DNA of 44,047 nucleotides from a virus (UHGV-0196292); one strand, 5' to 3'. Positions 6-44,047 are shown, counted from the stretch's first letter. Numbers and translations: made by a program. Notes: generated by a model from the letters alone, not told the origin.

Positions 6-34
6 TTGCAGACACCAACATAATAGGGTACTAT
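6..34 (+). promoter_or_regulatory. sigma70-like promoter TTGCAG-N17-TACTAT with AATAG-N4-CTATT palindrome over the -10
   Basis: Hexamers at 6-11 and 29-34 with 17-nt spacer; 18-mer ATAATAGGGTACTATTCA (20-37) is identical to 34377-34394. Confidence 0.5.
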
Positions 35-69
35 TCATTACATCGAAACGAGAGATGAGGAATTTAAAG

Positions 70-3365: not shown

Positions 3366-3377
3366 TGAATAATCCTC

Positions 3378-7331: not shown

Positions 7332-7473
7332 TTCTTCTCCTCTGCATAAGCTGCTTTAAGTGCCTTCATCGCTGCGGACCAGAACGCGTCAGCAGGAATA
7401 TTGCTGCTCAGGTTATAAACGGCTATACGTGCCATCAGTTGCGCATCTTCGAATGCTTCGATATCTGTGATTT

Positions 7474-7671: not shown

Positions 7672-7704
7672 CTTCTCTACTCCGTTCTCGTTGTCGATGG
7701 AGTA

Positions 7705-7733
7705 AATATAGTAGGGTCGATGGTAATAGTCAA
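7705..7733 (-). promoter_or_regulatory. sigma70-like promoter (TTGACT-N17-TATATT; TACTAT-class -10)
   Basis: Minus-strand hexamers at 7728-7733 and 7705-7710 with 17-nt spacer, just downstream of a terminator. Confidence 0.45.
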
Positions 7734-7756
7734 CTAGTCATTACAGAAAATAGATA

Positions 7757-7790
7757 AAAAAAATCCCGGCTGGGTCAGGGCCGGGATAAA
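7757..7790 (-). terminator. rho-independent terminator after lysis cassette
   Basis: CCCGGC...GCCGGG hairpin followed by a long T-run on the minus strand. Confidence 0.6.
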
Positions 7791-7851
7791 ACTGGAGAGT
7801 AGAGGGATGGAACAGGAGGTGATTTAAGTATCGTCGGATTAGTCTTAGGTG

Positions 7852-8391
7852 TCAACCTTTCACCGCGCGCCCGATAGCCTCAGCCTCTTGCCACGGTTTA
7901 CCGTCGAACAGCGCCAGACGCCCCGCGGTACGGCGACGCAGACCGAGTAATGGTTTGCCGTTCTGGTTGATGAACAGCGCCAGCTTAGCCCGCAGCGTCG
8001 CAATATCACCGGAGCGCAGCGCCTTACCAGTTCCGGTAGTAGTGGCAATCACACCAGCACCTGCGTTGTACACCAGGTCGCACACAGCGTCGAACTGTGC
8101 CTGTGTCAGGGAGTGGTGCGCTGCTGCGTCAACCGCAGCGACGGCCTTAGCCATGTCGCGGTTCAGTAACAGGAGGCCTTGTCCGGGAGTGATGGTCTTA
8201 CCTGGGGTTACGTCGGGTCCGTAGTGACCGTAACCTATCGTCAGGTACTTCTCGTTTGGTGTAGCACGATACGCAGTTCCACGGAACCCCTCAAACGCAG
8301 CACAGAAATGCAATCCATTATCTGAAATGTTTCGAGACACGCTTATGTCCTCCGTATGACAGCCACGCCTGACGAATCTGACGCAGCGCAA
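7852..8391 (-). CDS. endolysin, lysozyme-like (GH24-type)
   Basis: Catalytic-region signature FEGFRGTAYRA...YLTIGYGH; adjacent to holin-like genes; real start probably downstream of 8391. Confidence 0.75.
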   Translation of the reverse strand: MRCVRFVRRGCHTEDISVSRNISDNGLHFCAAFEGFRGTAYRATPNEKYLTIGYGHYGPDVTPGKTITPGQGLLLLNRDMAKAVAAVDAAAHHSLTQAQFDAVCDLVYNAGAGVIATTTGTGKALRSGDIATLRAKLALFINQNGKPLLGLRRRTAGRLALFDGKPWQEAEAIGRAVKG

Positions 8392-8590
8392 CCAATGTGA
8401 TTAATGTCTCAGGCAGCGTGGGTGACATGCTGCCCTGTAACAGGTGGATACATCCGGCGGCGCAGACGATAGCAGTCAGGATATAGAGCACCCGACCAAA
8501 TAGCCCGTCGTCCACGCTGGGATGATACACATTAAACAGCGATGTGCCTCCGATTGCCAGCATACCGCCGAACCAGAATAACTCATTCAT
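8318..8590 (-). CDS. holin/antiholin-like membrane protein
   Basis: Start set to internal Met (MNELFWFGGMLAIGG...) whose ATG overlaps upstream stop (ATGAATGA); two hydrophobic helices. Confidence 0.45.
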   Translation of the reverse strand: MNELFWFGGMLAIGGTSLFNVYHPSVDDGLFGRVLYILTAIVCAAGCIHLLQGSMSPTLPETLITLVALRQIRQAWLSYGGHKRVSKHFR

Positions 8591-8891
8591 CTGGGCCTCC
8601 TCGACGTGCGATGTATTCTCCAGCGACGATACCGGAGAGACGGGAATAGATAGGCATCCAGAGAACCGCGATGATGAAGCCCAGACCTGCGATTTCACGG
8701 TCGCCCGTGATACCGAACCATTGAGCCGCAAGAGGCGCACCAAATACGGCGCAGGTGAAGCCAGTTGCGATAAAGCAGAAGCCGTCGATAGGGCCAGAAA
8801 TAACGGACTTATGTTGTCGTAGTCCGATTACCCCTCCGGCTAGCGCGGCGGCGAGAAGCCAGCCTGTCACTGTTTCAGTAAATTTATCCAA
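8583..8891 (-). CDS. holin-like membrane protein
   Basis: 102 aa with three hydrophobic segments and charged C-terminus, upstream of endolysin. Confidence 0.5.
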   Translation of the reverse strand: MDKFTETVTGWLLAAALAGGVIGLRQHKSVISGPIDGFCFIATGFTCAVFGAPLAAQWFGITGDREIAGLGFIIAVLWMPIYSRLSGIVAGEYIARRGGPDE

Positions 8892-8966
8892 GATGAATCC
8901 TCCAGGTGCGTATTAAGTATGCAGTAACTGGAGGATACCACGGGTAGGAATTATCTTAATAACGGT

Positions 8967-9260
8967 TTATTTGTGTCTCCAGATGTATTGTCGTCTCTGT
9001 GGTTTCGTCGGAATATCTTCATATCCCAGCGATTTCCAGTAATTAAATAACCGGTTAGCGATATCTGCGCGTTCCTGTGTTTTGAACTCACCGAGATTCA
9101 CGGCCTTCCCGTTCTGGAATCCACAGGCACGGACCGCTTTGCGTCTGGCCGGAATCTCAGGGAACAGCGCGTTACCCCGACGCTTGTATATCTGTGTTTT
9201 AGCTCTCGGTGACAGCGGCGCAAGGCCGCTTCGTTTCAGGATGTCAGTTGCGAGGCTCAT
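8967..9260 (-). CDS. AP2-like DNA-binding domain protein
   Basis: GKAVNLGEFKTQERADIANRLFNYW resembles the AP2 DNA-binding domain; no nuclease domain attached. Confidence 0.4.
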   Translation of the reverse strand: MSLATDILKRSGLAPLSPRAKTQIYKRRGNALFPEIPARRKAVRACGFQNGKAVNLGEFKTQERADIANRLFNYWKSLGYEDIPTKPQRRQYIWRHK

Positions 9261-9595
9261 AGGTCGAGAATCTCACGTGCTAATTCATCCGTCTTCCAGT
9301 CGCACGGGCTATCTATTACCCGTTTAGCAAGCCTACGTAACTTAAGCTCAAGTTTTACGTAATCCGGGAACTGTTCTTTGTATTTCTGTAACTCGGCGTT
9401 AACTTCTGCCAGTCTTGACACAAGCCCTTCTATCTCCATGTCCGTAGTTGTTATGTAGTCCTGGAAACTGTCATCCAGTTCCTTGTAGTCTTCGTAACTC
9501 ACCCAATCACCTTCGTCACTCTTCACTAGCTCGTGATACGGGTGGTACGGGTTAGCGCCCACATCTTTAAACTCATATCTCTGTACCATAATCAC
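9257..9595 (-). CDS. hypothetical acidic protein
   Basis: 112 aa ORF, overlapping stop/start with neighbours. Confidence 0.35.
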   Translation of the reverse strand: MIMVQRYEFKDVGANPYHPYHELVKSDEGDWVSYEDYKELDDSFQDYITTTDMEIEGLVSRLAEVNAELQKYKEQFPDYVKLELKLRRLAKRVIDSPCDWKTDELAREILDL

Positions 9596-9795
9596 TTCTC
9601 CTGTTTACCAAGTCGCTTGGGTGAGCAGATAGCGCGTACCTCTGAATCGTTAGGCTTGTCACCCTGAAACAGGAAGTGCGCGTTCTCTGCGGCGCGTGCC
9701 GCTGACTGGCACGCCTCCATAGAGTAAAACGTTTCTGCTGCCGTCAGTTGCATCTGGCCTGCGGACAATACCCAGATAAATAAGATGCTGGTCAT
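9592..9795 (-). CDS. small secreted protein (signal-peptide-like N-terminus)
   Basis: N-terminal hydrophobic stretch MTSILFIWVLSAGQMQLTAA then polar region. Confidence 0.35.
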   Translation of the reverse strand: MTSILFIWVLSAGQMQLTAAETFYSMEACQSAARAAENAHFLFQGDKPNDSEVRAICSPKRLGKQEK

Positions 9796-10331
9796 TTATT
9801 TAGCCCACATTTCTTGCACATCATCGAAGCCCCTTTATTGTAAAAGCGCCATTCGTGTTCACACTCTGGCTTGACTACACGGTAGCGGGTAATGTCACCA
9901 CGCCATCCGCGATGGTCCCAGCGCAACTCCCCCGCTACTCCAGGTTCGCATGCACTGGTCCCGTCACGCATCCTGATTTGTACAATAGTATCTTTCGGCA
10001 CCGGGCACTCACCACCTTCCCACTTAACCCACGGCTCCGCGACCTGAGTATCTTCTTTACGGCAACCGGATTGCTCCGTGGCGTACCCACCTTTGCGGAT
10101 AAGTTTGTACGCCTCCGCGTCACCCGTAGCTTTAACCAACGCGATATGCAACTCCTTAATCTGCGCCGACGCATCACGTAACTGATTCTTAAGTGACTGC
10201 ACCTCGTGCGCCAGGTCTTCGCACTGTTGCTTGTACGGGTTACTATTTACCTGCTGCCGTAACTGGTCAATCAGGTACTCGAATACTTCGTTTTTGTTAC
10301 TCATAGTACGTACCCAACCTTTTCTCCGCAT
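9792..10331 (-). CDS. hypothetical protein with coiled coil and C-terminal zinc ribbon
   Basis: CEHEW...CKKCG pair; probable start at internal Met (MSNKNEVF). Confidence 0.4.
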   Translation of the reverse strand: MRRKGWVRTMSNKNEVFEYLIDQLRQQVNSNPYKQQCEDLAHEVQSLKNQLRDASAQIKELHIALVKATGDAEAYKLIRKGGYATEQSGCRKEDTQVAEPWVKWEGGECPVPKDTIVQIRMRDGTSACEPGVAGELRWDHRGWRGDITRYRVVKPECEHEWRFYNKGASMMCKKCGLNK

Positions 10332-10612
10332 TTACTACATGTATACTGCCTGTCGGTCGTATGCTCTGCAAAGTCGACAATCACCCGATGCTCGCATTCT
10401 TCCACTTCCGGGGGTTCCGGAATCTCCATCGACATCCAGTGTGTCGCGTCTTTTACAACAAACTGGCATTCGTCGTCGGAGAAACCTTTTTGACTCCGAG
10501 AATACGCAGCCCCATGCACTACACCGTATGTCGGGGAGTACACCCATAAATCATAATCGTACTCTTCGGGTAATTGCTCGGAGCATTTAACCCACGCACC
10601 ATTAGTGTCCAT
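10301..10612 (-). CDS. DUF551-like phage protein
   Basis: N-terminal WVKCSEQLPE signature of DUF551-type proteins. Confidence 0.5.
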   Translation of the reverse strand: MDTNGAWVKCSEQLPEEYDYDLWVYSPTYGVVHGAAYSRSQKGFSDDECQFVVKDATHWMSMEIPEPPEVEECEHRVIVDFAEHTTDRQYTCSKCGEKVGYVL

Positions 10613-10644
10613 CTTCTGTCTCTCCTCTCGTTTGTGTAAATGAA

Positions 10645-10673
10645 TAGTAGCCTATTCTATCTTAGTGTGCAAG
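10645..10673 (-). promoter_or_regulatory. sigma70-like promoter TTGCAC-N17-TACTAT with GAATAG-N4-CTATTC palindrome
   Basis: Minus-strand hexamers at 10668-10673 and 10645-10650; perfect inverted repeat 10642-10657. Confidence 0.5.
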
Positions 10674-10677
10674 TAAA

Positions 10678-10851
10678 TTTATTGGTGTGTTATGGAGTCG
10701 AGGAATGCCAGTAACTCCTTCTCCGCTTCTACTTCCCTTTCTTCAAGCGACCAGGTAGCGGATCCCTCTGTTGCCGTTGCTAAATCTGTTTTCACATCAA
10801 TCATCGTGTCGATCAACGCGATTAGTTGTTCAGCCTGTTCTTTAGTAATCA
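10678..10851 (-). CDS. small helical acidic protein (57 aa, below ORF-track cutoff)
   Basis: Hand translation MITKEQAEQLIALIDTMIDVKTDLATATEG...; preferred over antisense track ORF 10692-10913. Confidence 0.35.
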
Positions 10852-10924
10852 TTGTTGCATATCCTGCAATAGTCGCTTCTATTGTTGCGTTTGGTGAAAT
10901 AGAACAAAAATGAGAAAAATGATA

Positions 10925-10948
10925 CGCTGCTGTGTAGCAGCGTAAGAC
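10925..10948 (-). terminator. hairpin terminator/attenuator on minus strand
   Basis: Perfect 8-bp stem ACGCTGCT-acac-AGCAGCGT followed by T-rich tract (atcatttttctcattttt) on minus strand. Confidence 0.5.
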
Positions 10949-11010
10949 ACAAAGACAAATAGTAACCTATTGACCTGTTACACCAGCGACGGCGGCTCGG
11001 GTAACGGCAT

Positions 11011-11184
11011 CTAGTGAGAAAACACTTCCTGCGCGTGTTCCCCGTAGTCAGCACGGAAATCACACCAAGTTACCCCATCCCACTCGTACACATTGTTCTG
11101 TACCACACCGCCCATACTACTGACGACCAAAACTGGTTTGCCTAGCTCTGGCATCCTCTCACTACACTTAATCCACTCACTCAT
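11011..11184 (-). CDS. DUF551-like protein (57 aa, below ORF-track cutoff)
   Basis: Hand translation MSEWIKCSERMPELGKPVLVV... carries the DUF551 signature. Confidence 0.45.
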   Translation of the reverse strand: MSEWIKCSERMPELGKPVLVVSSMGGVVQNNVYEWDGVTWCDFRADYGEHAQEVFSH

Positions 11185-11187
11185 AAA

Positions 11188-11331
11188 TCACCTCGTATTC
11201 ATCACAGTTTGCACACCAGCTTTCCACGCCCGCCACGCGAGACGCGTCTTAACGTTCAGGTACTCTTTCTTCGAACCCTTGTTAACCGGCAGACCCTCGA
11301 CGACGGCCCACCGTTCGAATGCTTCTCTCAT
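11188..11331 (-). CDS. hypothetical small protein (47 aa)
   Basis: Hand-translated minus-strand ORF with GAGGA RBS, tightly packed between neighbours. Confidence 0.3.
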   Translation of the reverse strand: MREAFERWAVVEGLPVNKGSKKEYLNVKTRLAWRAWKAGVQTVMNTR

Positions 11332-11334
11332 AAC

Positions 11335-11556
11335 TTAGTCCTCGCTTAACGCCTGAGTCGCGACCAGGATGATAGCGGATAAACACTGTGCGCAAGGCTC
11401 TTGCCTGAATCCGTTTTCTACGGCAATTAAGGCGTGTTGAGCATCCTGGAACAACCATTCACCGTACGATGGAGAAGCCCCGCACCACGTTTCTATTTTA
11501 TTCGTCGGTAATTTAACCCCGTCCCGATGGTCTACCTTGATTATGTGTTTTCTCAT
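11335..11556 (-). CDS. hypothetical protein
   Basis: 73 aa ORF in operon. Confidence 0.35.
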   Translation of the reverse strand: MRKHIIKVDHRDGVKLPTNKIETWCGASPSYGEWLFQDAQHALIAVENGFRQEPCAQCLSAIILVATQALSED

Positions 11557-11834
11557 ACCAACCCCATCTTCTCTTTAACGTGCACCCAAAACTCACCGCA
11601 GTACCAGCACCACATAAGATTAGGTGTCTCGCGAACCCAACCGTAATCCCCGCGGGCGCGAATCGGGATAATGCCTTTAGTGAAATAATAACCTGTCCGC
11701 AGAAACTCAGGGTCGCGCGTCGCGGTGCGCCACATGTTATAAAACTGCGCCAGCCCGGCACCCCGACGCATGACCCGTACCTTATGAAGGGTGTCAGAGA
11801 CTTTTTCCAGTTCAGCGTTATTCATTAACGGCAA
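11553..11834 (-). CDS. hypothetical protein
   Basis: 93 aa ORF with CWYCGEF motif. Confidence 0.35.
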   Translation of the reverse strand: MPLMNNAELEKVSDTLHKVRVMRRGAGLAQFYNMWRTATRDPEFLRTGYYFTKGIIPIRARGDYGWVRETPNLMWCWYCGEFWVHVKEKMGLV

Positions 11835-12028
11835 CCTCCCTCAGAGTCGTCGGCACGAGCATCATGATTCGATGCCGTTCGTAGCGCACGTAAAACTTTT
11901 AGCAGGTCCTTCCATACCCCGGAAGAAATAGTTGGGCCGTCGAATAAAATAACTTCGTATCTGTTTACCTGGAAATGCACTTTCTCCAGTCTATGATGTT
12001 TCAGTTCTTCAAATAATTCTTCCATCAC
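11825..12028 (-). CDS. hypothetical protein
   Basis: 67 aa ORF. Confidence 0.3.
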   Translation of the reverse strand: MMEELFEELKHHRLEKVHFQVNRYEVILFDGPTISSGVWKDLLKVLRALRTASNHDARADDSEGGCR

Positions 12029-12216
12029 TTCACCCCTTTGAATTTAAAATTGTTGCCGATGAGACACATATCCTGTGCGTATAAAACGGTGAGATACGAC
12101 CCCGTTAAAGATTCAGCAAAATAGATATTATTTTCTTTATGAAATGCGAATATGACCGCAAGCTCCCCAGTCCCCGTAATTCTCACCAACTGACCCTTCT
12201 TAAACATAACTCTCAC
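12025..12216 (-). CDS. hypothetical protein (first gene of minus-strand early operon)
   Basis: 63 aa ORF directly downstream of promoter 12242-12270. Confidence 0.35.
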   Translation of the reverse strand: MRVMFKKGQLVRITGTGELAVIFAFHKENNIYFAESLTGSYLTVLYAQDMCLIGNNFKFKGVK

Positions 12217-12241
12217 TCCTCTGTCTCGTTCCGATAAGTGA

Positions 12242-12270
12242 ATAGTATCCTATTATGCTGGGGCGTGCAA
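12242..12270 (-). promoter_or_regulatory. sigma70-like promoter TTGCAC-N17-TACTAT with GAATAG-N4-CTATT palindrome
   Basis: Minus-strand hexamers at 12265-12270 and 12242-12247. Confidence 0.5.
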
Positions 12271-12644
12271 GAGAATAGTTACGTTGCCGTTGTGATTCTT
12301 TCGTTTCTTAAAAGAGTACGCAACGCAGTGGGTGGGCGTTAGCCCACCCCAGCGGAGTGAAGTACTCTCCGCCTTGCTCACGGCAACTGTAGAAACTTTT
12401 AATTATCAGTGACTTAAGAGGTATGATGCCGATGAGAATAGAGCTTACCCAGGGCAACCGGAGATACAAGGAAGGAAAGTTACGGTAATTCTTATGTTCA
12501 GTAATCTGCCGCTTAACACTTCGCTTGCGCTTTGGCGCCGCTGCGTTTCAAGCGGGTATTACAAGGTGAACAGGAATCAAAGTAACTAAGATATAGAAGC
12601 ACCTTAAACGAAGATTTTCATAATGTCAATATGTGCGATTATGT

Positions 12645-12673
12645 TTGATTTCCCATTATTCGCAATGTATACT
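12645..12673 (+). promoter_or_regulatory. sigma70-like promoter TTGATT-N17-TATACT for plus-strand replication block
   Basis: Hexamers at 12645-12650 and 12668-12673. Confidence 0.45.
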
Positions 12674-12705
12674 TGGTTCCTATAACTGATAATGAGGGTT
12701 TGAGA

Positions 12706-12876
12706 ATGACACAGAATGAGGTAGCTGAGCGTATCGGGGTTACTCGTCGCACACTTAATAACTGGTTAAAGAGTGGGAAGTTCCCGGATTGTTGTATCCG
12801 TATTATGGGTCGCCGTCAGCCAGGTACGTTCGACCCGGAGAAAGTGGAAGCGTGGATTAAGGAGAACGTGAAATGA
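12706..12876 (+). CDS. AlpA/excisionase-like HTH transcriptional regulator
   Basis: ATG at 12706 with GAGGG RBS (track start 12673 is TTG); VAERIGVTRRTLNNWLKSGKFP HTH pattern. Confidence 0.5.
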   Translation: MTQNEVAERIGVTRRTLNNWLKSGKFPDCCIRIMGRRQPGTFDPEKVEAWIKENVK

Positions 12877-13106
12877 CCGAATTTCAGTCGCGCGTATTTA
12901 CGGCGGTCGTTTCGTTAACACGTAAAAAAGGGTCATGCAGTGTTATCGACTTGCGCCGTAGTTATTTTAAGTACTATAGTTCAGCCATTATTGAAGGGTC
13001 GTTGAAAGTGCTGGTTAAATCGGGTGTCGTGAAAAACGTTGGCGGGAAATATAACGCTGTTGCTGAAGTTCGCGGAATGACCGCTACTTTAGAAGACCTG
13101 GAATAA
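12873..13106 (+). CDS. hypothetical protein
   Basis: 77 aa ORF, overlapping start/stop. Confidence 0.4.
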   Translation: MTEFQSRVFTAVVSLTRKKGSCSVIDLRRSYFKYYSSAIIEGSLKVLVKSGVVKNVGGKYNAVAEVRGMTATLEDLE

Positions 13107-13165
13107 AAGAAAGCCCCGACGCGGTGAACGCCGAGGCCAAATTACTTGCTGAAGGAATATACAAC

Positions 13166-15433
13166 ATGTCCGATGTAATTTTATCCTACTCGTGGTCTCG
13201 TCGCAACGCGCGGGCGGAGAAAAAGGATATAAACGTCAAAACCACACACACGGCAACACTGGACGACCTGAAAGAGCTAATTAAGCCGCTTGATGCTATT
13301 CGTGATGGAATTAACCCGAAGACCGCGCCTGGCTACATCACCGCCGCGTGTGACTCGACGCACAGCACCGTAAAAGACCCGGAAACCGGCGACTTTAAGC
13401 AGGCGCGTAAAGGCTTCTTCTATCGTTGCGACGCGTCTGTAAGCAAATCGTCACTGGCGTATCTGGATTTCGACAGCGCAACGCCGGAAGAGTATCAGGA
13501 AGCGGTGCGCCGGGTTAAGCGCAGTCGTCGCGCGATGTGCCTCTACACCACGGCATCCCATACCGATGAGTCACCGCGCTTTCGCGTCGTCATGCCGCTG
13601 GGTCGCCCTGTCGAAGGGGGTGACATCATCCGCGTACGTCACGGGTTGCTGGAACACTTCTTCAAAGGCATGGGCGCTGACCGCAGCGGGTTCACTCTGT
13701 CGCAGCCGATGTATCTGCCTCCGGTCGGCGCTACCGTTATCTGGTCGCGCCGTAACGACCTGATTGACCCGGACGAGTTGCTTGAAGGCATCCCCGACGT
13801 TGACGTTAGCAGCGCATCCGACTACCAGATACCGGAAGAACTGCGCACCGCGTTTACTGATGCGTTTGAAGCACTGGCATTCGAGTACGGCGGCATCATG
13901 ACACCCCGCGGTCTGAAAATGCCAGCTACGCCGGAACACGCAGAAAACTACAGCGACCCGACGCCGCGTCCGGATGACTTCCTGCTGTGTTTCCCGCGTG
14001 AAGGGTACGAAGCGCCGAACGTAACCATGATTCATGACACCGACATTACGGCGACCGAAGGCATGCCACCGAAAGAGGTGTGGAAGTATGCGTGCGATGC
14101 GACAGGGCTGCCGTTCAGTGAAGTTGCAGAGGCCATCGGATGGGGTGCACGTGAATCTGTTTCATGCAGCCTGGACGACCTGGAAGACGACGAGGATCCA
14201 GAGGAGGACGAGTTACCGGAACCGGTAAAGGCGGATTTCGTCGTTGAGGGGTACATGCCGTCGGATTGCATCTGGGATATCGTCGGGGAATCTGGCACGT
14301 ACAAATCGTTCTATACGCTGGGGATGATGTACCTCAGCGCCGCCGGATACCGGTTTGCGGGAGCCGATACGCAGCGTTGCCACCATTTCTATATCGACGG
14401 CGAGGGTGGTGCAGCTACGCGCACACGTATCGATGCACTCGCGGCTAAATACGGCGAGGAAGGTAAAGATTATGTACATGTCATTGACATGGGTGAAGTC
14501 GGCAAGCTGAAAAACCTGATTAAGTTGATGCGTGAAACTGCTGGCGACGAGCCAATTGGCATGGTTGCGTTCGACACCCTTAACCAGACGCTGGCCCTGA
14601 CGATTGATAAGTTTGACGAGAACAGTTCATCAACGGCAATCGGCATGGGTAAAGTCATCGCCATCCTGAAAGAAGTGCGTGACGCGACTAAAGCTGCGGT
14701 AGGCGTTGTCCACCATACGCCGAAGGGTGGAAAGAAAGCCCGCGGCAGCGGGGCGCTGTATGCGGGCGTCGACGTGGAACTGACAATTGAACGCGCAACC
14801 GACCGCCAGATAAACGTATATCACTCTAAATTTAAGCACGGGCCGCAACAGAAGACGGTCGGCATGGTGCTTGAGTCTGTACAGTTCCGTGAAGCGCCGC
14901 CGCCGAAAGAGTATCGCGCCGTTGAGTTCCTCGGTAGCACGGAGGAATACGGCACAATAGTAAACCTCGACCTGCCGGAGCCGCACAAGGCGCTTGTGCT
15001 GATGCCGTGGGGCTTCGAGCCGTTCAAGACTGACGAGGAGAAAGAGCGGGAAGAAGGTCTGACAAAGGAAGGTAAAGAAAACGTACGTAAAACCGTAGAG
15101 AACGCCGTCAACAGTTCGGAGGCCACGATACTGGCAGCGTTTGAACTGGCAGAAGGAACCTACAGCGGCAACGAAGGTATCACGGTAGCCGCAGCGAATA
15201 AGCTCGCACAGTCCGACCCTAACGCAAAGGCGTTCAACTCTAAAGAAGCCATAGAACGCGGGAAGATTAAGAAAATGGTTGAGGCCGGGTATCTTGTTCC
15301 GGGTACTGACGAAAACAATCAGATAATCCCTGGCCGTTACAGGCTGAACACCCGGATAACGGATAACAAGATTCCGAAGACAATATACGAACCGAATGAA
15401 ATGTTAACAGTGACAGAGGAGGATTTGGAATGA
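13166..15433 (+). CDS. DNA primase-polymerase / RecA-like helicase fusion
   Basis: N-terminal prim-pol-like region; central Walker A (GESGTYKS) of RepA/DnaB-like ATPase; ATG at 13166 preferred over GTG at 13124. Confidence 0.7.
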   Translation: MSDVILSYSWSRRNARAEKKDINVKTTHTATLDDLKELIKPLDAIRDGINPKTAPGYITAACDSTHSTVKDPETGDFKQARKGFFYRCDASVSKSSLAYLDFDSATPEEYQEAVRRVKRSRRAMCLYTTASHTDESPRFRVVMPLGRPVEGGDIIRVRHGLLEHFFKGMGADRSGFTLSQPMYLPPVGATVIWSRRNDLIDPDELLEGIPDVDVSSASDYQIPEELRTAFTDAFEALAFEYGGIMTPRGLKMPATPEHAENYSDPTPRPDDFLLCFPREGYEAPNVTMIHDTDITATEGMPPKEVWKYACDATGLPFSEVAEAIGWGARESVSCSLDDLEDDEDPEEDELPEPVKADFVVEGYMPSDCIWDIVGESGTYKSFYTLGMMYLSAAGYRFAGADTQRCHHFYIDGEGGAATRTRIDALAAKYGEEGKDYVHVIDMGEVGKLKNLIKLMRETAGDEPIGMVAFDTLNQTLALTIDKFDENSSSTAIGMGKVIAILKEVRDATKAAVGVVHHTPKGGKKARGSGALYAGVDVELTIERATDRQINVYHSKFKHGPQQKTVGMVLESVQFREAPPPKEYRAVEFLGSTEEYGTIVNLDLPEPHKALVLMPWGFEPFKTDEEKEREEGLTKEGKENVRKTVENAVNSSEATILAAFELAEGTYSGNEGITVAAANKLAQSDPNAKAFNSKEAIERGKIKKMVEAGYLVPGTDENNQIIPGRYRLNTRITDNKIPKTIYEPNEMLTVTEEDLE

Positions 15434-15627
15434 GCGGTAAATTTAAAGAAGTAAGCGACGAACTGAAAGGTAATAAATACACCAACCACAGAGGTGAAAT
15501 AGTAGAAGTTCTTAACGTAGTTCCTTATGGGCGTGGCTACCATGTTGTGTTCAGCTACACGGAGGCTTACAGCGTGTACTGCGGGTTAGGTAAGTTTCGC
15601 AAAAGATACCCGATAAAGGTGCAATAA
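15430..15627 (+). CDS. hypothetical protein
   Basis: 65 aa ORF; start overlaps primase stop within GAGGAGG. Confidence 0.4.
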   Translation: MSGKFKEVSDELKGNKYTNHRGEIVEVLNVVPYGRGYHVVFSYTEAYSVYCGLGKFRKRYPIKVQ

Positions 15628-15632
15628 AAAGA

Positions 15633-15652
15633 AAGGGGCGTTAAGCCCCTTC
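15633..15652 (-). terminator. terminator hairpin for the XRE gene
   Basis: AAGGGGC-gttaa-GCCCCTT with T-run on the minus strand. Confidence 0.5.
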
Positions 15653-15856
15653 ACCGAACGCCAGCCACTTGGCGTCTACTTGCAGCACTTCCGCCAGTTT
15701 AAACAGCGTTGCCGGTCGGACGTCCTGAGTTACCCCGAGTGCCAGTTGGTTAATCGCGCCCTGAGAAACACCAGCCAGAACAGCCAGACGGCGCTGGGAG
15801 AGGCCTAGCTCTTTACGGCGTTGTTCTACACGGATGCCTAGTTCAGATGGTTGCAT
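15641..15856 (-). CDS. XRE-family HTH regulator (Cro/CI-type)
   Basis: HTH motif QRRLAVLAGVSQGAINQLALG; lone minus-strand gene inside plus-strand block with own promoter and terminator. Confidence 0.7.
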   Translation of the reverse strand: MQPSELGIRVEQRRKELGLSQRRLAVLAGVSQGAINQLALGVTQDVRPATLFKLAEVLQVDAKWLAFGEGA

Positions 15857-15887
15857 GTCAATTACTCCTTAGTCAGTTGATATGTGA

Positions 15888-15916
15888 ATAGTACCATATT
15901 AATTATTTTAGAAAAG
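15888..15916 (-). promoter_or_regulatory. promoter of XRE gene (TG-extended TACTAT -10, weak -35) overlapped by palindrome
   Basis: Minus-strand TGGTACTAT (15888-15896); GAATAG..ATATT palindrome 15887-15901. Confidence 0.4.
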
Positions 15917-15920
15917 CCCA

Positions 15921-15949
15921 TTGACAACATGAATAGTTCGCTATTATAG
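15921..15949 (+). promoter_or_regulatory. divergent sigma70-like promoter (TTGACA-N17-TTATAG) overlapped by GAATAG-N4-CTATT palindrome
   Basis: Consensus -35 at 15921-15926; palindrome 15932-15946. Confidence 0.5.
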
Positions 15950-15981
15950 TTAGCCTATACCAAACGAGAGGAGAGAAACAA

Positions 15982-16131
15982 ATGACCAATAACCGCAAAG
16001 CAAAGATTCTGTTAGGCCTTGATATTGCATTTGGAACTAAAGAAACCGCACGCTATCGCGTAAGCAACAATCGTGTTGGCTTCTTCGACAAAGCGACGGG
16101 CCGGTTAGTTAAAACCGTTAAATACAAATAA
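15982..16131 (+). CDS. small basic protein (49 aa), first gene after the switch region
   Basis: Strong RBS GAGAGGAGAG; hand translation MTNNRKAKILLGLDIAFGTKE...; below ORF-track cutoff. Confidence 0.4.
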   Translation: MTNNRKAKILLGLDIAFGTKETARYRVSNNRVGFFDKATGRLVKTVKYK

Positions 16132-16146
16132 ACAGGAGAACAAATA

Positions 16147-16608
16147 ATGTTAGACCAATTCTTAAAATTACTGGAACGTTTCGTAGTTGCCCATGAACTG
16201 ATTGCTGCGAACAGTGTGAAACAGGTTGTCGTTGCTGAAACTGCAACAATCGGGCCTACTGTTGCAACAAAAGAAATCCCGGTTGAAGGAGAAGACGTCG
16301 TCGACACTAAACCTGCAGAAGAAGAGAAGCCGAAACGCAAGCCGCGTAAAGGTAAAGTAGAGGAACCTGCGCCAGAGCCGGAAGAAGAGAAAGAAGAGGT
16401 CGATTACCAGTCCATTCGCGACCAGATTCAGGCTATCGACGACGCGATTAACGAGGGTCCTAGTGATGCCGCGTGCGATGATTCCGATGAACTGCTGGAA
16501 GAGTTCACCGGTAAGAAGATGAAGATTGCCGCGATTAAAGACGAAGACCTTGCGGAGTACCTGGAACGCCTGACGGCAATCAAGAACAAGTATTTCGAAG
16601 AAGAATAA
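16147..16608 (+). CDS. highly acidic protein
   Basis: 153 aa with long Glu/Asp-rich tracts (EEPAPEPEEEKEE; DDSDELLEEF). Confidence 0.5.
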   Translation: MLDQFLKLLERFVVAHELIAANSVKQVVVAETATIGPTVATKEIPVEGEDVVDTKPAEEEKPKRKPRKGKVEEPAPEPEEEKEEVDYQSIRDQIQAIDDAINEGPSDAACDDSDELLEEFTGKKMKIAAIKDEDLAEYLERLTAIKNKYFEEE

Positions 16609-16651
16609 TTATCCCGCGGCCTTCGGGCCGCTTTAACTGAGGGTCGGAATT

Positions 16652-16855
16652 ATGGCTATTTTAGCTAAGAAAAGTGGGCTTATGATTTCAGGGCGAGTCA
16701 TAGAAGAAACAGATAACTTTGTATGCTTCCACGCGGTAGATAATAAACGCCCTACGTATGTACAAAAGTCGGATAAAACACAAAAAGTTTTCGACGGTGA
16801 TTTTTCTATGGATGACGTTTTCTCGTGGATTAATTCTGTGAGGGTAAAGAAATGA
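16652..16855 (+). CDS. hypothetical protein
   Basis: 67 aa ORF in operon. Confidence 0.4.
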   Translation: MAILAKKSGLMISGRVIEETDNFVCFHAVDNKRPTYVQKSDKTQKVFDGDFSMDDVFSWINSVRVKK

Positions 16856-17124
16856 TTTACCAACTCTACCGCGCCGTAGACAGGCGGGATAACACAGAGG
16901 CGTTGTGGCTGTTGCGTGCGCCGTCCGGTGCGCACCAGATGGAAGAGATGGCGTACTTAGGCAAAGTGCCGCACCCTAAAGATATAGGCCGTCACGTGTC
17001 GCAGATTAAGCGCACGACTTTCGCCAAGCCTGACTTTTATGTCTTCGAGTCGATGTACGGGTGGGCTATGCATTGTGACCATAAGACACGACATTTAATT
17101 GACCAGTGGGGGAACAGGGTATGA
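16852..17124 (+). CDS. hypothetical protein
   Basis: 90 aa ORF, overlapping start/stop. Confidence 0.4.
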   Translation: MIYQLYRAVDRRDNTEALWLLRAPSGAHQMEEMAYLGKVPHPKDIGRHVSQIKRTTFAKPDFYVFESMYGWAMHCDHKTRHLIDQWGNRV

Positions 17125-17378
17125 ATTGGGTTAGCGTAAACGAAGCATTACCGGAGTCAAAAGATGATTCTGTTTTAGTTTGCTCAGTAGACGGTAGTAA
17201 ATGCGACGATAATGGGTTCCCGGAAGGTGGAATTGATTTTGTGCACATACAGGACTATTTCGACGACATTACTGCGGGGCTGGATGAAAACGGAAATCAG
17301 TTATATACGAAACAGTATATCGAGATGGGTATAACACACTGGATGTATTTACCAGAACTACCGGAGGAGGCTAAATAA
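17106..17378 (+). CDS. DUF551-like phage protein
   Basis: WVSVNEALPE signature near N-terminus. Confidence 0.5.
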   Translation: MGEQGMNWVSVNEALPESKDDSVLVCSVDGSKCDDNGFPEGGIDFVHIQDYFDDITAGLDENGNQLYTKQYIEMGITHWMYLPELPEEAK

Positions 17379-18652
17379 TGATTCTAAAAGAACGCGGCGG
17401 CAATAACGATGTGCACGCCCTGCTGTCGCCGTCAGGTGCTAAGAAGTGGCTGACGTGCAGTGCATCACTGGCCTGTGAAAGAGATATCCCTAACACATCG
17501 GGTAAAGCCGCCGTATTAGGCACAGCCATGCACACCATAGCTGAGATGCATCTAAACCAGTACATCAAAGGCACTGCGTTGCCGTTAGAACGTGAAGTCG
17601 GTGCTTACGTGCTGGATGAGGGTAAAGGTCAGATTAAGGCGCTAATCAGTCCGATGAAAGGTGCGGTACTAATTACGGCGGACATGATTGAGCAGGTGCG
17701 CAAGTACACCGACTACTGCAAAGCGATTATCGATGTAGCGACTTACGCCAAGCTGGAAATGCGTGTCAATCTTACTGAGGTATTGCATCCGGGTTATGGA
17801 GGCGTTGAGACGTTCGGAACCGCCGACCTTGTTGCCGTTCTTGAAAAGGCGAACACAGACGAACATATCCTCAATGTTACCGACCTGAAAACCGGGCGGC
17901 ATCGTGTCGAAGCGAAAGAAAACAAGCAGCTTATGCTTTACGCTCTCGGTGTTTATCGCCGGCTCAAGAGACGTTATAACATCACCATGGTTCGTCTGGT
18001 CATCTTCCAGCCGTACGCGGGTGGCGCGTCGGAGTGGGACATCTCAGTTGAAGGTCTGGAGCTGTTCGCTAAGTTTGCGCAGAAACGCGCACTGTTAGCC
18101 CTCGATGCTTATTCCCGCGGCAAGAAGAACCTGAAGGCATCGGATTTCAAGCCGTCAGTAGATGGTTGTCAGTGGTGCCGGTTCTCTGAACAGTGCGCCG
18201 CGCGTACAAAAACAGTTAACGCGGTACTGGCAGAAGAACTGGAGGACGACTTTGCACTGGAACTGACGCCAGAGCAACTAGTAGCTGAATACGAGAAGCT
18301 GCCGCTGTTGCGCCAGCACATCGACAAGGTTGAAAAAGCGATGGCTGCCGCGTTGCATTCCGGTAAGAAAGTGCCGGGGTACAAGCTGGTTGAAGGTCGT
18401 CCTGGTAATCGTGCGTGGAAGGATGAAGACGCAGTAAATAAATTCAGAGAAAACCATGTAAACGGCTACTTATTAGATAAACTAGTGCCAGTTACCCCAA
18501 CAGAAGCAGAAAAAACCATAGGTAAAATTGACCCAGAACTGTGGGAAGAATTGGCTAAACTCGTGACACGTAAGCCAGGCGCACCATGTGTCGCAACGGC
18601 AGACGACAAACGCCCTGAGTGGAATCAGGTAACAGAGGAGGATTTAGAATGA
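17378..18652 (+). CDS. Cas4-like PD-(D/E)XK exonuclease (DUF2800-type)
   Basis: N-terminal Cys plus C-terminal C-x2-C-x5-C (CQWCRFSEQC) Fe-S pattern; DLK catalytic-type motif; sits with SSB-like and PolA genes. Confidence 0.7.
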   Translation: MILKERGGNNDVHALLSPSGAKKWLTCSASLACERDIPNTSGKAAVLGTAMHTIAEMHLNQYIKGTALPLEREVGAYVLDEGKGQIKALISPMKGAVLITADMIEQVRKYTDYCKAIIDVATYAKLEMRVNLTEVLHPGYGGVETFGTADLVAVLEKANTDEHILNVTDLKTGRHRVEAKENKQLMLYALGVYRRLKRRYNITMVRLVIFQPYAGGASEWDISVEGLELFAKFAQKRALLALDAYSRGKKNLKASDFKPSVDGCQWCRFSEQCAARTKTVNAVLAEELEDDFALELTPEQLVAEYEKLPLLRQHIDKVEKAMAAALHSGKKVPGYKLVEGRPGNRAWKDEDAVNKFRENHVNGYLLDKLVPVTPTEAEKTIGKIDPELWEELAKLVTRKPGAPCVATADDKRPEWNQVTEEDLE

Positions 18653-18900
18653 TTCGTAAAATGTTCAGGGTGCTTGGTGGGTTTGTGGCGTGTATTGTTT
18701 TCTGGGTTCTTATGCTGCCCCTAACGCTACCGACATTTATCTTAATGTGCCTTACGGTATGTGTAGCGCAAACTCGCGACATCGAAGCCATCCTGCGTGA
18801 TAAATCGTGGAAGACACAGGCGCTTCGATTCATAAACAACATGAAATGGCCCAACAAGTATATTGAGATAGTTGAGAAAATAACTGGCTGGAAGGGTTGA
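18649..18900 (+). CDS. small membrane protein
   Basis: Start at MIRKMF (overlaps nuclease stop); two hydrophobic helices. Confidence 0.4.
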   Translation: MIRKMFRVLGGFVACIVFWVLMLPLTLPTFILMCLTVCVAQTRDIEAILRDKSWKTQALRFINNMKWPNKYIEIVEKITGWKG

Positions 18901-18925
18901 CACCTGAATAGTTAGCTACTATATT
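18897..18925 (+). promoter_or_regulatory. internal sigma70-like promoter TTGACA-N17-TATATT with GAATAG palindrome-like element
   Basis: Consensus -35 at 18897-18902; GAATAGttagCTACTAT 18906-18922. Confidence 0.45.
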
Positions 18926-18984
18926 TCTAATCACTGGCCGGGCAGCCTCCCGGAGTAAGCGAAACTTAAAAGCGAGAAATCAAG

Positions 18985-19611
18985 ATGGGTATTAAACTGA
19001 ATCTGCGTAAAGTAAACACTGCATGGGTTAACGTATTCGAACGCGAAAAAGACCGTGAAAACGATGATGGCTCAATCACTAAAGGCCAGTACAGCGCGAC
19101 TATCATCCTGCCGTCTGACCACGCGCAAATCGACGCGCTCTACGACACAGTTTATGCTGTAGTTGAAGAAGCATTGGGTGCCGCTGCTGCCGAGAAGTGG
19201 ATGAAATCCAACTACGGAGAAGGTAAGCACATGGATAAATGTGCGATTAAGGACATTGCCGAGCGTGACAATCCGTTTGAAGACTTCCCGGAAGGCTTCT
19301 ACTTCAAAGCTAAGGCACAGAAACAGCCACTGATTGTAACCTCTAAAAAAGGTGAGACTCAGGTAGAACAGGACTTCAACGTAGACGGCGAACAGATTGA
19401 AGGTGAACAGGTTTACAGCGGCTGCGTTGCTAACGTAAGCGTCGAAATCTGGTTCAGCCAGAAATACAAAGTCCTCGGTGTTAACCTGCTGGCGATTAAA
19501 TATGTTGGCGAAGGTAAAGCGTTCGGTGGTTCTAAAGTCGCCGCAAGTGTAGACGACCTGGAAGACGACGATGAAGATGAAGCACCGCGACGCGAACGTC
19601 GCCGTCGCTAA
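18985..19611 (+). CDS. ssDNA-binding protein (DUF2815-like)
   Basis: Position between Cas4-like nuclease and PolA; acidic DDLEDDDEDE tract followed by basic RRERRRR tail. Confidence 0.55.
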   Translation: MGIKLNLRKVNTAWVNVFEREKDRENDDGSITKGQYSATIILPSDHAQIDALYDTVYAVVEEALGAAAAEKWMKSNYGEGKHMDKCAIKDIAERDNPFEDFPEGFYFKAKAQKQPLIVTSKKGETQVEQDFNVDGEQIEGEQVYSGCVANVSVEIWFSQKYKVLGVNLLAIKYVGEGKAFGGSKVAASVDDLEDDDEDEAPRRERRRR

Positions 19612-19630
19612 TATCTGAATCAATTTAACT

Positions 19631-19654
19631 AAGGCCCTTCATTGGGCCTTTTTA
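19631..19654 (+). terminator. rho-independent terminator
   Basis: AAGGCCC-ttcatt-GGGCCTT followed by TTTT. Confidence 0.65.
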
Positions 19655-19670
19655 CTAAGGGTCAAAAATA

Positions 19671-21842
19671 ATGAGTTACCTGTTCTTAGACTTTGAAACA
19701 TTCTCCGAGGCCGATTTAAAGAAAGTTGGCTCCTACGCTTACGCCGAACACCCAACCACCGAAGTGCTCATCTGTACCTATGCTTTTGACGACGAGCCTG
19801 TACAGGTATGGGATTGCACCGACGGCAGCGACATGCCGGGAGATTTGCACCGCGCGTTACGCCGTCTGGTTAAGCCAAACAGCCGCATCAAGATGGTGTG
19901 GCACAACGGCTCAATGTTCGATCGTCTTGTCATGAAGCACTGCTGGGGTTTTGATATTCCGGTAAGCAACACCATTGATACGATGATTTGGGCGTTTCGT
20001 CACGCGCTGCCGGGTTCACTTGATGCGTTGTGCGAAGTGCTGGGCGTATCTGCGGACAACGCGAAAGACAAACGCGGCAAGGCTCTGATTCAGCGTTTTT
20101 CTAAACCGACGCCGAAGAACTACAAAATACGTCGCTACACCGCCGAAACACACCCGGACGAGTGGGCGATATTCATCAAGTACGCCGTGAGCGACATCAC
20201 CGCGATGCGTGAAGTCTTCCATAAGCTGCCGCGTTGGGGTAACTCCGAGTTCGAGGACCGGGTGCTTGAGCTGGACCAGTTAATCAATGACCGAGGGTTT
20301 AAGGTTGACGTAGCGCTGGCAGAAGCCGCAATTGAAGCCGTGGAGAAACACAAAGCGCAGTTACAGGAAGAAGCCCAGCGCAAATACGGCGGCTCTCTTA
20401 CTGGTAAAGACTTCCTTCCGATTCTGCGCGAACTTGCGCCCGCGCACCGCATCCACAATGCGCAGAAGTCAACGCTTCATGACCTGCTGGCAGACGATGA
20501 TTTACCGGACGATGCGCGTACTATTATCGAAATGCGGCTCGGGGCCGCGTCCACCGCATCAACGAAATATAACCCACTGCTGTTGGGCCGCTCTTCGGAC
20601 GACCGACGCCGCGGTTGTATCCAGTACGGCGGGGCAAAGCGTACGTTACGGTTTGCGGGTAAAGGCTTCCAGCCGCAGAACCTCGCACGCGGGTACTATC
20701 ATGATGATGAACTGGATAAAGGTATTTCCGCGCTACTTAAAGGCCGTGCGCATCGCCGTTTTGATGTAGCCAAACTAACGGCATCGACGGTGCGTAGCTG
20801 CATCATACCGGAAGCCGGGCATAAGTTTGTCGTTGCCGATTACTCTAACGTTGAAGGCCGTGGTTTGGCGTGGCTGGCTGGGGAAGACGATTTAATCGAA
20901 GTATTTGTAAACGGGGTTGATGTGTATAAGAAACTCGCATCAACGGTGTTCAACGTTGCCTATGAGGATGTAACAAAGGACCAAAGACAAATAGCCAAAG
21001 CAATGGTTCTGGGCCTCGGCTACGCGGGAGGTGTCGGTGCTTTCGTCACGTTTGCTAAAAACTTAGGTCTTGATTTGAACGATATGGCCCGCACTTTAGA
21101 CGGAACTTTCCCGGACCATATTTGGGCTGCTACCGCACGCGGTTACGAGTGGGCGCGTATTCAGGAAGCCAAGCGACCACCACGTCCTGGTGAAAAGGAT
21201 GACAGGCCATCGTATATTCTTGATAAGAAAGTGTGGCGTACCTGCGACGCTTTAAAACGCATGTACCGAGAAGCTAATCCTGCAATAGTCAAATTCTGGC
21301 GGGATATTGAAGACGCGGCCATGGCGGCTATCCGCAACCCAGGTAAAGAGTTCACCGCAGGGCCACGCGGCGTTAAGTTTTCGCGTAACGTAGAGACAGA
21401 CAACAACGGCAACAAAGTCGCCGGTTGGTGGTTGCGCATGACGTTGCCGTCGGGCCGCGTCATGTCTTACCCGGGCGTCGGGTTGAGCGTGTCGAAAGAG
21501 ACAGACGAAGACGGGAAGGTGTCTACTAACGTGCGCATCAAGTACCAGGGTGAAAATCAGCTAACCCGTCAGTGGGGGTTCCAGTACACCTACTCCGGTA
21601 AACTGGTGGAAAACTGCACTCAGGCGTTGTGCCGTGATTTGCTGGCCAACGCGCTGCTGAACGTTGAGGCAAACGGCTACCCGATTGTGCTTCACGTACA
21701 CGATGAGATTATCTGCGAGACACCAGATTTACCGGAATACAATGTAGCAGAGCTTGAGCGGTTGATGTGCGAATTACCGGAATGGGCAGAAGGCTTCCCT
21801 CTTGTAGCGGAAGGTGCGGAGATGAAGCGTTATGCTAAGTAA
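19671..21842 (+). CDS. family A DNA polymerase with 3'-5' exonuclease domain
   Basis: Exo I (LDFETFS), motif A (DYSNVEGR), motif B (KDQRQIAKAMVLGLGYAGG), motif C (HVHDE). Confidence 0.9.
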   Translation: MSYLFLDFETFSEADLKKVGSYAYAEHPTTEVLICTYAFDDEPVQVWDCTDGSDMPGDLHRALRRLVKPNSRIKMVWHNGSMFDRLVMKHCWGFDIPVSNTIDTMIWAFRHALPGSLDALCEVLGVSADNAKDKRGKALIQRFSKPTPKNYKIRRYTAETHPDEWAIFIKYAVSDITAMREVFHKLPRWGNSEFEDRVLELDQLINDRGFKVDVALAEAAIEAVEKHKAQLQEEAQRKYGGSLTGKDFLPILRELAPAHRIHNAQKSTLHDLLADDDLPDDARTIIEMRLGAASTASTKYNPLLLGRSSDDRRRGCIQYGGAKRTLRFAGKGFQPQNLARGYYHDDELDKGISALLKGRAHRRFDVAKLTASTVRSCIIPEAGHKFVVADYSNVEGRGLAWLAGEDDLIEVFVNGVDVYKKLASTVFNVAYEDVTKDQRQIAKAMVLGLGYAGGVGAFVTFAKNLGLDLNDMARTLDGTFPDHIWAATARGYEWARIQEAKRPPRPGEKDDRPSYILDKKVWRTCDALKRMYREANPAIVKFWRDIEDAAMAAIRNPGKEFTAGPRGVKFSRNVETDNNGNKVAGWWLRMTLPSGRVMSYPGVGLSVSKETDEDGKVSTNVRIKYQGENQLTRQWGFQYTYSGKLVENCTQALCRDLLANALLNVEANGYPIVLHVHDEIICETPDLPEYNVAELERLMCELPEWAEGFPLVAEGAEMKRYAK

Positions 21843-22198: not shown

Positions 22199-22506
22199 CT
22201 AAAGAGGGCCGCGTACAGAAATACGCAAAAGAGCGATTCGAGGCCATTGGTGGCCTCATTCGTAAACTTTCCTACGAGGGGCGCTCCGGCGCTCCCGACC
22301 TGCTGGTAATTCTCCCCGGGGGCATCGTCTGGTTCGTCGAGGTGAAGAAAGACGAAAACACGAAGCCAGACCCGCACCAGCTACGTGAGCACGAGCGGAT
22401 GCGCAAACGCGGTGCAAATGTTTTTGTCGTTGGGTCGTTTAAACAGGTTGACGACCTAATAGCGAACTATTATAGTTATCCGTACACCAACAATATAAGG
22501 AATTGA
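22195..22506 (+). CDS. VRR-NUC domain nuclease
   Basis: Core GAPDLLVILPGGIVWFVEVKKDEN...LREHE (PD-(D/E)XK-type) in ~100 aa. Confidence 0.7.
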   Translation: MTKEGRVQKYAKERFEAIGGLIRKLSYEGRSGAPDLLVILPGGIVWFVEVKKDENTKPDPHQLREHERMRKRGANVFVVGSFKQVDDLIANYYSYPYTNNIRN

Positions 22507-22509
22507 GAA

Positions 22510-34362: not shown

Positions 34363-34391
34363 TTGCACACCCCAATATAATAGGGTACTAT
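34363..34391 (+). promoter_or_regulatory. sigma70-like promoter TTGCAC-N17-TACTAT with AATAG-N4-CTATT palindrome
   Basis: Hexamers at 34363-34368 and 34386-34391; 18-mer identical to 20-37. Confidence 0.55.
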
Positions 34392-34416
34392 TCACCTGTA
34401 ACTTACTGAGGAAATA

Positions 34417-43780: not shown

Positions 43781-44047
43781 AGTCCTTATCATTTAAACAT
43801 AGAAACGGCGTAATCTCAGTAAACCAGTTACTTTTTACACAAGCAATAGAGTATGGCCCTTCCGAACGCGTCAGCGTAACTACACTCAGGACTTACGTCC
43901 CGCTCCGTTACCTGCCCGCGCCGCGGTCGCTTGTTCATACTTCACAAGCTCAGGTGGAGCTTAGCACATTTTCAGTGAAAAGTCAACTATTCGAATAGTT
44001 TATTCCAACATTTACAATTCGGTGGAATAACTGGAATAGGTAAATAA

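Follow-up and report, generated by a model that had tools for sequence, protein, structure and literature searches.

A clade-specific dyad overlaps predicted promoters in a Kagunavirus genome and may be the operator of a small Cro-like protein

We analysed a 44,047-bp stretch of viral DNA (UHGV-0196292, hereafter the window), in which a short dyad, AATAG-N4-CTATT, recurs in multiple copies. The window was about 90-92% identical to the E. coli Kagunavirus phages BEU35, K1G and fFiEco03 over about 70% of a 9-kb test stretch, and belongs to the genus Kagunavirus in the subfamily Guernseyvirinae. As its two ends join as a single intergenic region, the window is probably a whole genome. The gene map that we made matched the annotation of relatives, and every open reading frame (ORF) longer than 300 amino acids (aa) had an annotated homologue (helicase-primase, DNA polymerase, exonuclease, SNF2 helicase, terminase, portal, capsid, tail, tape measure and tailspike). 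Lysogeny functions were not recognisable in the phage. The coordinates of the gene blocks, of the dyads and of two small proteins considered below as possible binders, an XRE protein and an HTH_17 protein, are given in Table 1.

We observed that the dyad forms a real family, which lies far above chance, is conserved, and is specific to one clade. In comparison to shuffled sequence, RAATAG-N4-CTATT gave 7 strand matches at 6 sites in the window (0.16 expected), while AATAG-N4-CTATT with at most one mismatch gave 13 sites (0.78 expected). When all dyads with 5-mer arms and gaps of 0-10 were listed without bias, AATAG-N4-CTATT ranked first, with 7 observed against about 0.04 expected, and the remaining dyads in the list were terminator hairpins. 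Although non-coding DNA makes up 7.2% of the window, 6 of the 7 exact sites lie in it, as do 10 of the 13 found when one mismatch was allowed; shuffled non-coding segments yielded 0.006 and 0.144, respectively.

An earlier note on this DNA had listed eight such sites and an everted CTATTCGAATAG. All of these were found again within 1-2 nt of the positions given there, although the sites at 15887 and 18907 carry one mismatch. The exact site at 22458 had been overlooked, as had the one-mismatch sites at 7725, 43978 and 1840-1853. The last of these (AATAGCATACTATA) overlaps the start region of gene 771-1847, adjoins a hairpin at 1859-1876 and is possibly a chance match. The extended form of the dyad in the genus is TGAATAG-N4-CTATTAT, a slightly asymmetric 18-mer, and at 10643 the site and its flanks make up a 16-bp palindrome, GAATAG-N4-CTATTC.

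Table 1. Coordinates of the dyads, candidate binders, predicted promoters and gene blocks in the window. Hexamers are those of predicted sigma-70-like promoters, listed as -35, spacer and -10.
Feature	Position	Strand or direction	Details
Exact dyad AATAGGGTACTATT over -10, class A	22..35	+	TTGCAG 6-11, 17 nt, TACTAT 29-34; predicted to drive gene 70-282
Exact dyad over -10, class A	34379..34392	+	TTGCAC 34363-34368, 17 nt, TACTAT 34386-34391; predicted to drive accessory operon 34417-36978
Exact dyad, class A	10643..10656	-	TTGCAC 10672-10667, 17 nt, TACTAT 10649-10644; predicted to drive operon starting 10612
Exact dyad, class A	12241..12254	-	TTGCAC 12270-12265, 17 nt, TACTAT 12247-12242; leftward small-gene operon starting 12207
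Exact dyad in spacer, class B	15932..15945	+	TTGACA 15921-15926, 18 nt, TATAGT 15945-15950; predicted to drive 15982 through exonuclease operon
One-mismatch dyad in spacer, class B	18907..18920	+	TTGACA 18897-18902, 17 nt, TATATT 18920-18925; DUF2815 gene and DNA polymerase operon
Exact dyad in spacer, class B	22458..22471	+	TTGACG 22448-22453, 17 nt, TATAGT 22471-22476; predicted to drive 22510 through SNF2-helicase operon
One-mismatch dyad over -35 (minus strand ACTAG-TTGA-CTATT), class C	7725..7738	-	TTGACT 7733-7728, 17 nt, TATATT 7710-7705; small-gene/packaging operon starting 7671
One-mismatch dyad overlapping -35, class C	43978..43998 (dyad 43978-43991, with adjoining everted CTATTCGAATAG 43987-43998)	-	TTGACT 43986-43981, 17 nt, TAAGCT 43963-43958
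One-mismatch dyad (minus strand AATAT/CTATT) over TACTAT -10	15887..15900	-	TACTAT 15893-15888; XRE gene's own predicted promoter; no good -35
Exact dyad with TACTAT, no -35	10958..10971	-	Between gene end 11011 and minus-strand terminator 10944-10923
Dyad-less sigma-70-like promoter	12645..12673	+	TTGATT, 17 nt, TATACT; HTH_17 and helicase-primase operon
XRE (HTH_3) protein, 71 aa	15641..15856	-	434 Cro-like; HTH_3 match E 6.6e-13; best candidate binder
HTH_17 (excisionase/MerR-like) protein, 56 aa	12706..12876	+	Alternative candidate binder; only in Kagunavirus/Jerseyvirus; missing from one dyad-bearing contig
Small genes, lysis genes, packaging genes	310-12207	leftward	
Replication block	12706-25193	rightward	
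Tail genes	25232-34255	leftward	
Accessory operon	34417-36978	rightward	
Head and tail genes	37007-43733	leftward	

The promoters referred to here are sigma-70-like predictions from sequence. Nearly all of those in this phage carry the dyad, which occupies three registers on them, with its centre near -12.5, -18.5 or -33.5. It had been proposed that the right half-site in most cases supplies a TACTAT -10 placed 17 nt from a -35 hexamer, but this was borne out at four sites only (class A, with TTGCAC or TTGCAG as the -35), where the right arm lies within the -10 and the left arm in the spacer. At 15887 and 10958 the TACTAT is present, but a convincing -35 is absent. The proposal does not hold for class B, in which TTGACA or TTGACG is followed after 4-5 nt by the dyad, so that the dyad lies within the spacer and the -10 (TATAGT or TATATT) starts at, and shares, only the last T of the right arm. 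Nor does it hold for class C, both members of which are one-mismatch sites with the -35 hexamer TTGACT inside the dyad. The dyad also occurs in both orientations relative to the hexamers, the asymmetric 18-mer pointing oppositely in class A and class B. At nine sites the arrangement was TTGNNN, 17-18 nt and a TANNNT -10. The consensus score of the predicted promoters was 9-11 of 12 in classes B and C, but only 7 of 12 in class A.

The predicted promoters that the dyads overlap, at the -10, the spacer or the -35, stand 25-59 nt upstream of start codons, and at eight sites the distance from the -10 to the start codon is only 25-35 nt. The promoter at 43978 faces the operon for spanin and head genes, whose start codon is 224 nt away. 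Four of the dyad promoters (leaders 36-70, 10613-10643, 12208-12241 and 15951-15981) share a leader, AAACGAGAG(G/A)(A/T)GAG, directly before the start codon. Together with the short distance to the start codon, these leaders resemble compact promoter-operator-leader cassettes.

Several of the sites showed features of their own. The dyad at 34379 is also common to a possible leftward promoter, GTTACA-17-TATATT (34402-34374), and the site at 22458 sits within the 3' end of gene 22195-22506. At 18907, the CTATT arm is exact in three relatives. The mismatch at 15887 (AATAT) places a TG two bases ahead of the -10 and so gives this promoter, by direct inspection of the sequence, an extended -10-like form. 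The site at 10958 is doubtful as a promoter, since a gene ends on one side of it and a terminator lies on the other, and since most relatives lack it: among the sampled Kagunaviruses only five had it, the others having CAATAGTTTGGGATTTT there. It may have been gained recently, or be a remnant or a roadblock site. Around the join of the two window ends (43980-44047 joined to 1-21), GGAATA(A/G) repeats and the everted CTATTCGAATAG lie between the divergent promoters of the head operon and of gene 70-282. Similar GGAATAA repeats were seen in the matching regions of Cornellvirus SP-031 (L005, near 25,400 and 26,560), and these repeats may be sites for a second factor common to all three genera.

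We further examined the conservation of the dyad in 54 loci around XRE homologues and 73 loci around exonuclease homologues fetched from IMG/VR, to which the whole genomes of Jerseyvirus SE2 and Cornellvirus FSL SP-031 were added. Dyads numbered 3-5 per 10 kb in all loci of Kagunavirus and Jerseyvirus, and about 0 in Cornellvirus and in two more distant related clades. At orthologous sites in about 60 Kagunavirus and Jerseyvirus loci, the arms had 0-2 variant sequences per column, and the N4 centre up to 9. At site 22458 (45 loci, 27 distinct sequences), the ten arm columns showed 0-2 variants and the four centre columns 3, 8, 9 and 5. The linker to the -35 differs by genus (GACC versus AAAT), and at 15932 it varies in length, giving a spacer of 17 or 18 nt, while the arms are fixed. 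The class C arms are ACTAG-TTGA-CTATT in Kagunavirus and AATAG-TTGA-CTAGT in Jerseyvirus. The half-site is flanked by T (T-AATAG) in 40 of 40 Jerseyvirus cases. In Kagunavirus sites, one of the flanks is G.

Cornellvirus retains the orthologous promoter beside the XRE gene (TTGCAC-18-TATAGT), but with degenerate arms, and a non-symmetric ATTAGTTTAGTATT stands where the dyad would be. A de novo search of Cornellvirus and of two further clades with related exonucleases yielded terminator hairpins and GC-rich noise but no alternative multi-copy dyad, and so gave no support to a separate dyad for each XRE. When IMG/VR was scanned with TGAATAG-N4-CTATTAT, multi-copy matches were obtained only in Kagunavirus contigs, and elsewhere only single chance matches. 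Cornellvirus SP-031 has, downstream of its helicase-primase gene (L005 13790-13830), a direct repeat GTGAATAGTTAT in two copies beside GGGGGAGA-type repeats. This may be an origin region, and the TGAATAGT word found there lies outside any dyad.

Taken together, these observations lead us to propose, with a probability of roughly 0.55, that AATAG-N4-CTATT is the operator of a phage-encoded, dimeric, sequence-specific binder, most likely the XRE protein, which would jointly turn down sigma-70-type promoters. The three registers and both orientations set the dyad apart from the -35 and -10 hexamers as a module of its own. The arms are conserved and the centre is free, several registers are used, and the symmetry is lost where the promoter survives; together these features point to the site of a dimeric protein and not of RNA polymerase. 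As is expected of an XRE/Cro-type operator, the dyad is an inverted repeat whose half-sites lie about 9-10 bp apart, centre to centre, with arms that are conserved and a middle that is only weakly so, and it lies over predicted promoters, as an operator would. The suggestion in the earlier note of a dimeric repressor is thus supported by the comparative evidence (registers, orientations, invariant arms and the loss in Cornellvirus), while its description as a dyad embedded in the -10 does not fit the family as a whole.

A different explanation would be that the sites are simply related sigma-70 promoters that arose by copying or were inherited as cassettes, and that only RNA polymerase reads them, with the symmetry a by-product of AT-rich -10-like words. 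The class A right arm does belong to the -10, and the class A sites are alike over a longer stretch (TTGCAC, ACCCCAACAT and a downstream leader AAACGAGAGGAG). In addition, CTATTAT contains the -10-like hexamer TATTAT, and AATAG also abuts -35 hexamers in Cornellvirus. We nevertheless consider this explanation unlikely. RNA polymerase does not read the spacer positions where the left arm lies, and still this arm is invariant and nearby spacer bases are not; the dyad is found in three registers and in both orientations to transcription; the arms remain reverse complements of each other across two genera; and the orthologous Cornellvirus promoter retains its hexamers but loses the symmetry. It appears very unlikely that the main role of the cassettes is in recombination, as short patches of homology between mosaic gene modules, and not in regulation. 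The sites do flank strongly mosaic small-gene blocks, and the cassettes are kept between genera despite differing flanking genes. However, recombination linkers require neither dyad symmetry nor a variable centre, and the sites follow promoters and not module borders generally, so that recombination would be at best a side effect. A promoter specific to a phage-encoded or phage-modified RNA polymerase seems hardly credible here, although a PHIRE-based annotation of Kagunavirus fBC-Eco01 lists the same motif under that label (PMC9825357). The genome has no RNA-polymerase gene, all ORFs above 300 aa being otherwise assigned; the motif keeps no fixed orientation or distance to downstream genes, and sigma-70-type hexamers always accompany it. 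We also rejected a bidirectional -10, because only one strand has the TA that a -10 requires, and a role as an RNA hairpin, because the predicted transcripts begin downstream of the dyads and the arms are short and AT-rich.

If the site is an operator, we take the XRE protein as the best candidate for its binder, at about even odds. Its closest solved relative is 434 Cro, which has the same length (E 3.6e-7, residues 6-68 aligned). The 434 Cro protein binds 14-bp operators in which the outer bases are conserved and the centre is variable. The XRE gene is bordered by a 125-bp divergent intergenic region that contains two dyads, and the predicted promoter at 15932 is divergent from it. Every locus with dyads that covered the XRE position also had the protein (33 of 33 in Kagunavirus and 11 of 11 in Jerseyvirus). 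Among Kagunavirus proteins that are 78-100% identical overall, XRE is invariant from the end of helix 1 through helix 3. The genus difference in the half-site flank (T versus G) parallels the divergence of the XRE helix-turn-helix. Close homologues of both XRE and HTH_17 all fell inside Kagunavirus and Jerseyvirus in the phage collection, IMG/VR, a set with one genome per species and a 5.8-billion-protein set, so that none of these offered an independent case of co-occurrence with the dyad.

There are, however, several points that weigh against our proposal. Despite the same ten arm bases, the recognition helix of XRE is SQGAINQ in Kagunavirus and SQSLITH in Jerseyvirus, and at the base-contacting positions given by the 434 Cro alignment the residues are Q,G,N,Q and Q,S,T,H, respectively. 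The Cornellvirus helix, TQSAISH (Q,S,S,H), is near that of Jerseyvirus, yet Cornellvirus has no dyads, and a further clade (L111-L117) likewise has an XRE orthologue and no dyads. The XRE-proximal sites of Jerseyvirus are imperfect (AATCG...CTATT and ATTAC...CTATT), and both HTH_17 and a 63-aa orphan protein fit the clade distribution of the dyad better than XRE does. The class A -35, TTGCAC, fits the consensus at only 3 of 6 positions, and the activity of the class A promoters is therefore assumed. In the Guernseyvirinae literature we found only genome reports, and no transcript-start, binding or expression data.

There is a small but serious chance that the operator proposal is right and that the binder is a protein other than XRE, either another phage protein or a host transcription factor. 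The 56-aa HTH_17 protein is confined to Kagunavirus and Jerseyvirus, matching the distribution of the dyad, and its identity between these genera is 86-89%, compared with 51% for XRE. Orthologues of XRE also occur in clades without the dyad. This candidate is weakened by a natural replacement: a Kagunavirus contig (L030, the same as L102; IMGVR_UViG_3300045988_014597) has its HTH_17 module replaced and retains 6 exact dyads. Further, HTH_17 has different putative recognition helices in different Kagunaviruses (TRRTLNNW, TRQTINNW and SPMTLNRW) while the arms are constant, and small HTH_17/excisionase-type proteins usually bind direct repeats and not 14-bp dyads. On the replaced contig (L030 12556-13141), the HTH_17 gene and a 77-aa gene upstream of the helicase-primase have given way to a 149-aa ORF and a 47-aa ORF with two CxxC pairs. 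The 63-aa orphan protein (22510-22701) fits the clade distribution of the dyad perfectly. It was rejected as a binder, as its predicted structure (predicted local distance difference test score, pLDDT, 92) shows a barrel of the EF-P/eIF5A domain-I or SH3/KOW/Tudor-like type, a fold not known to bind DNA sequence-specifically. A host factor would leave unexplained why Cornellvirus, which infects Salmonella like Jerseyvirus, is without the sites, and we know of no E. coli regulator with the consensus of the dyad.

Were XRE to act on these operators as proposed, a graded shut-off of the Cro type could be envisaged. Some ten host sigma-70-type promoters around the genome would carry an operator, and early in infection the host RNA polymerase with sigma-70 would fire all of the dyad promoters. 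The regulator would then build up from its own weakly operated, extended -10-like promoter. Since a bound dimer would cover the -10, the spacer or the -35, it would exclude RNA polymerase and lower these promoters together. We infer an order of occupancy in which the exact operators (22, 10643, 12241, 15932, 22458 and 34379) would be filled first, turning down early, replication and accessory promoters; the operator at 18907, exact in relatives, is grouped with these. The one-mismatch operators, at the regulator's own promoter and at the packaging- and head-facing promoters, would be filled later or less fully. Promoters without an operator would keep firing; the HTH_17/helicase-primase operon is predicted to escape the regulon in this way, and a second dyad-less sigma-70-like promoter was found at 5243-5214, upstream of the small terminase gene. 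The outcome would be a shut-off of early and middle transcription in lytic growth. It is improbable, in our estimate, that in this genus, regarded as strictly lytic and used in therapy, nearly all promoters, including the packaging-, head- and possibly tail-facing ones, are instead held under one Cro-like protein for a reversible silencing of the whole genome (e.g. in a carrier or dormant state), or that the dyad is read by an unrecognised factor; the latter is conceivable because the specificity residues of XRE do not track the dyad.

The proposed arrangement has several parallels. The 434 Cro and cI proteins act at 14-bp operators, ACAA-N6-TTGT, at PR/PRM, and lambda Cro lowers early promoters in lytic growth. 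As in 434, the candidate regulator is a 71-aa HTH_3 protein (with 434 Cro as its closest solved relative), the dyad is 14 bp long with conserved outer arms and a variable centre, and the regulator gene lies in a divergent promoter region with two sites; as in both 434 and lambda, the sites overlap promoters, here predicted sigma-70 ones. Unlike in 434 and lambda, neither a partner cI-type repressor nor a triple operator array is present, and the sites are spread over about ten promoters of a lytic phage in place of being clustered at one switch. The half-site sequence also differs from that of 434, and the binding is here a prediction. In having a short site in many copies across the genome, with one proposed repressor for many transcription units, the arrangement is closer to the regulons of the P1 C1 repressor, with its many scattered operators, and of mycobacteriophage L5 gp71, with its 13-bp 'stoperators'. 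The P1 and L5 sites are asymmetric, and the L5 sites are orientation-dependent and often lie within transcribed regions. Here, in contrast, dyads lie on the promoters themselves, in a phage without recognisable lysogeny functions. We would describe this as most likely a familiar kind of switch that is unusually widespread for a strictly lytic phage.

Phages of the genera Kagunavirus and Jerseyvirus are widely isolated for use in therapy and biocontrol. Should a single small repressor have the dyad as its operator, about ten promoters would belong to one regulon, and genome papers that name the motif a phage polymerase promoter would need correction. The promoter-operator-leader cassettes would also be handy tunable parts for engineering these phages. 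As the class of system is familiar, the gain lies in understanding this virus group and not in a new principle. The motif itself has already been published. The genome paper of fBC-Eco01, a phage of the same genus, gives the same sequence motif as seven PHIRE-predicted 'phage RNA-polymerase' promoters with the consensus tgAATAGTa-ccTATTat-T (PMC9825357). There the motif is attributed to a phage RNA polymerase, whereas these genomes encode none and the evidence favours an operator on host-type promoters.

The accessory operon 34417-36978, which the dyad at 34379 would control, encodes four proteins: a 109-aa protein of unknown function, a 376-aa calcineurin-like phosphoesterase (phrog_704, 'DNA repair exonuclease'), a PNKP-type HAD phosphatase and a P-loop kinase. 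Together these look like a nucleic-acid end-repair module. Cornellvirus is without this operon. We also observed that one terminator hairpin, AAGGCCCC-N4-GGGGCCTT, ends three transcription units in the window (287-306, 19631-19650 and 36983-37002), and the same hairpin was found again in SE2 and SP-031.

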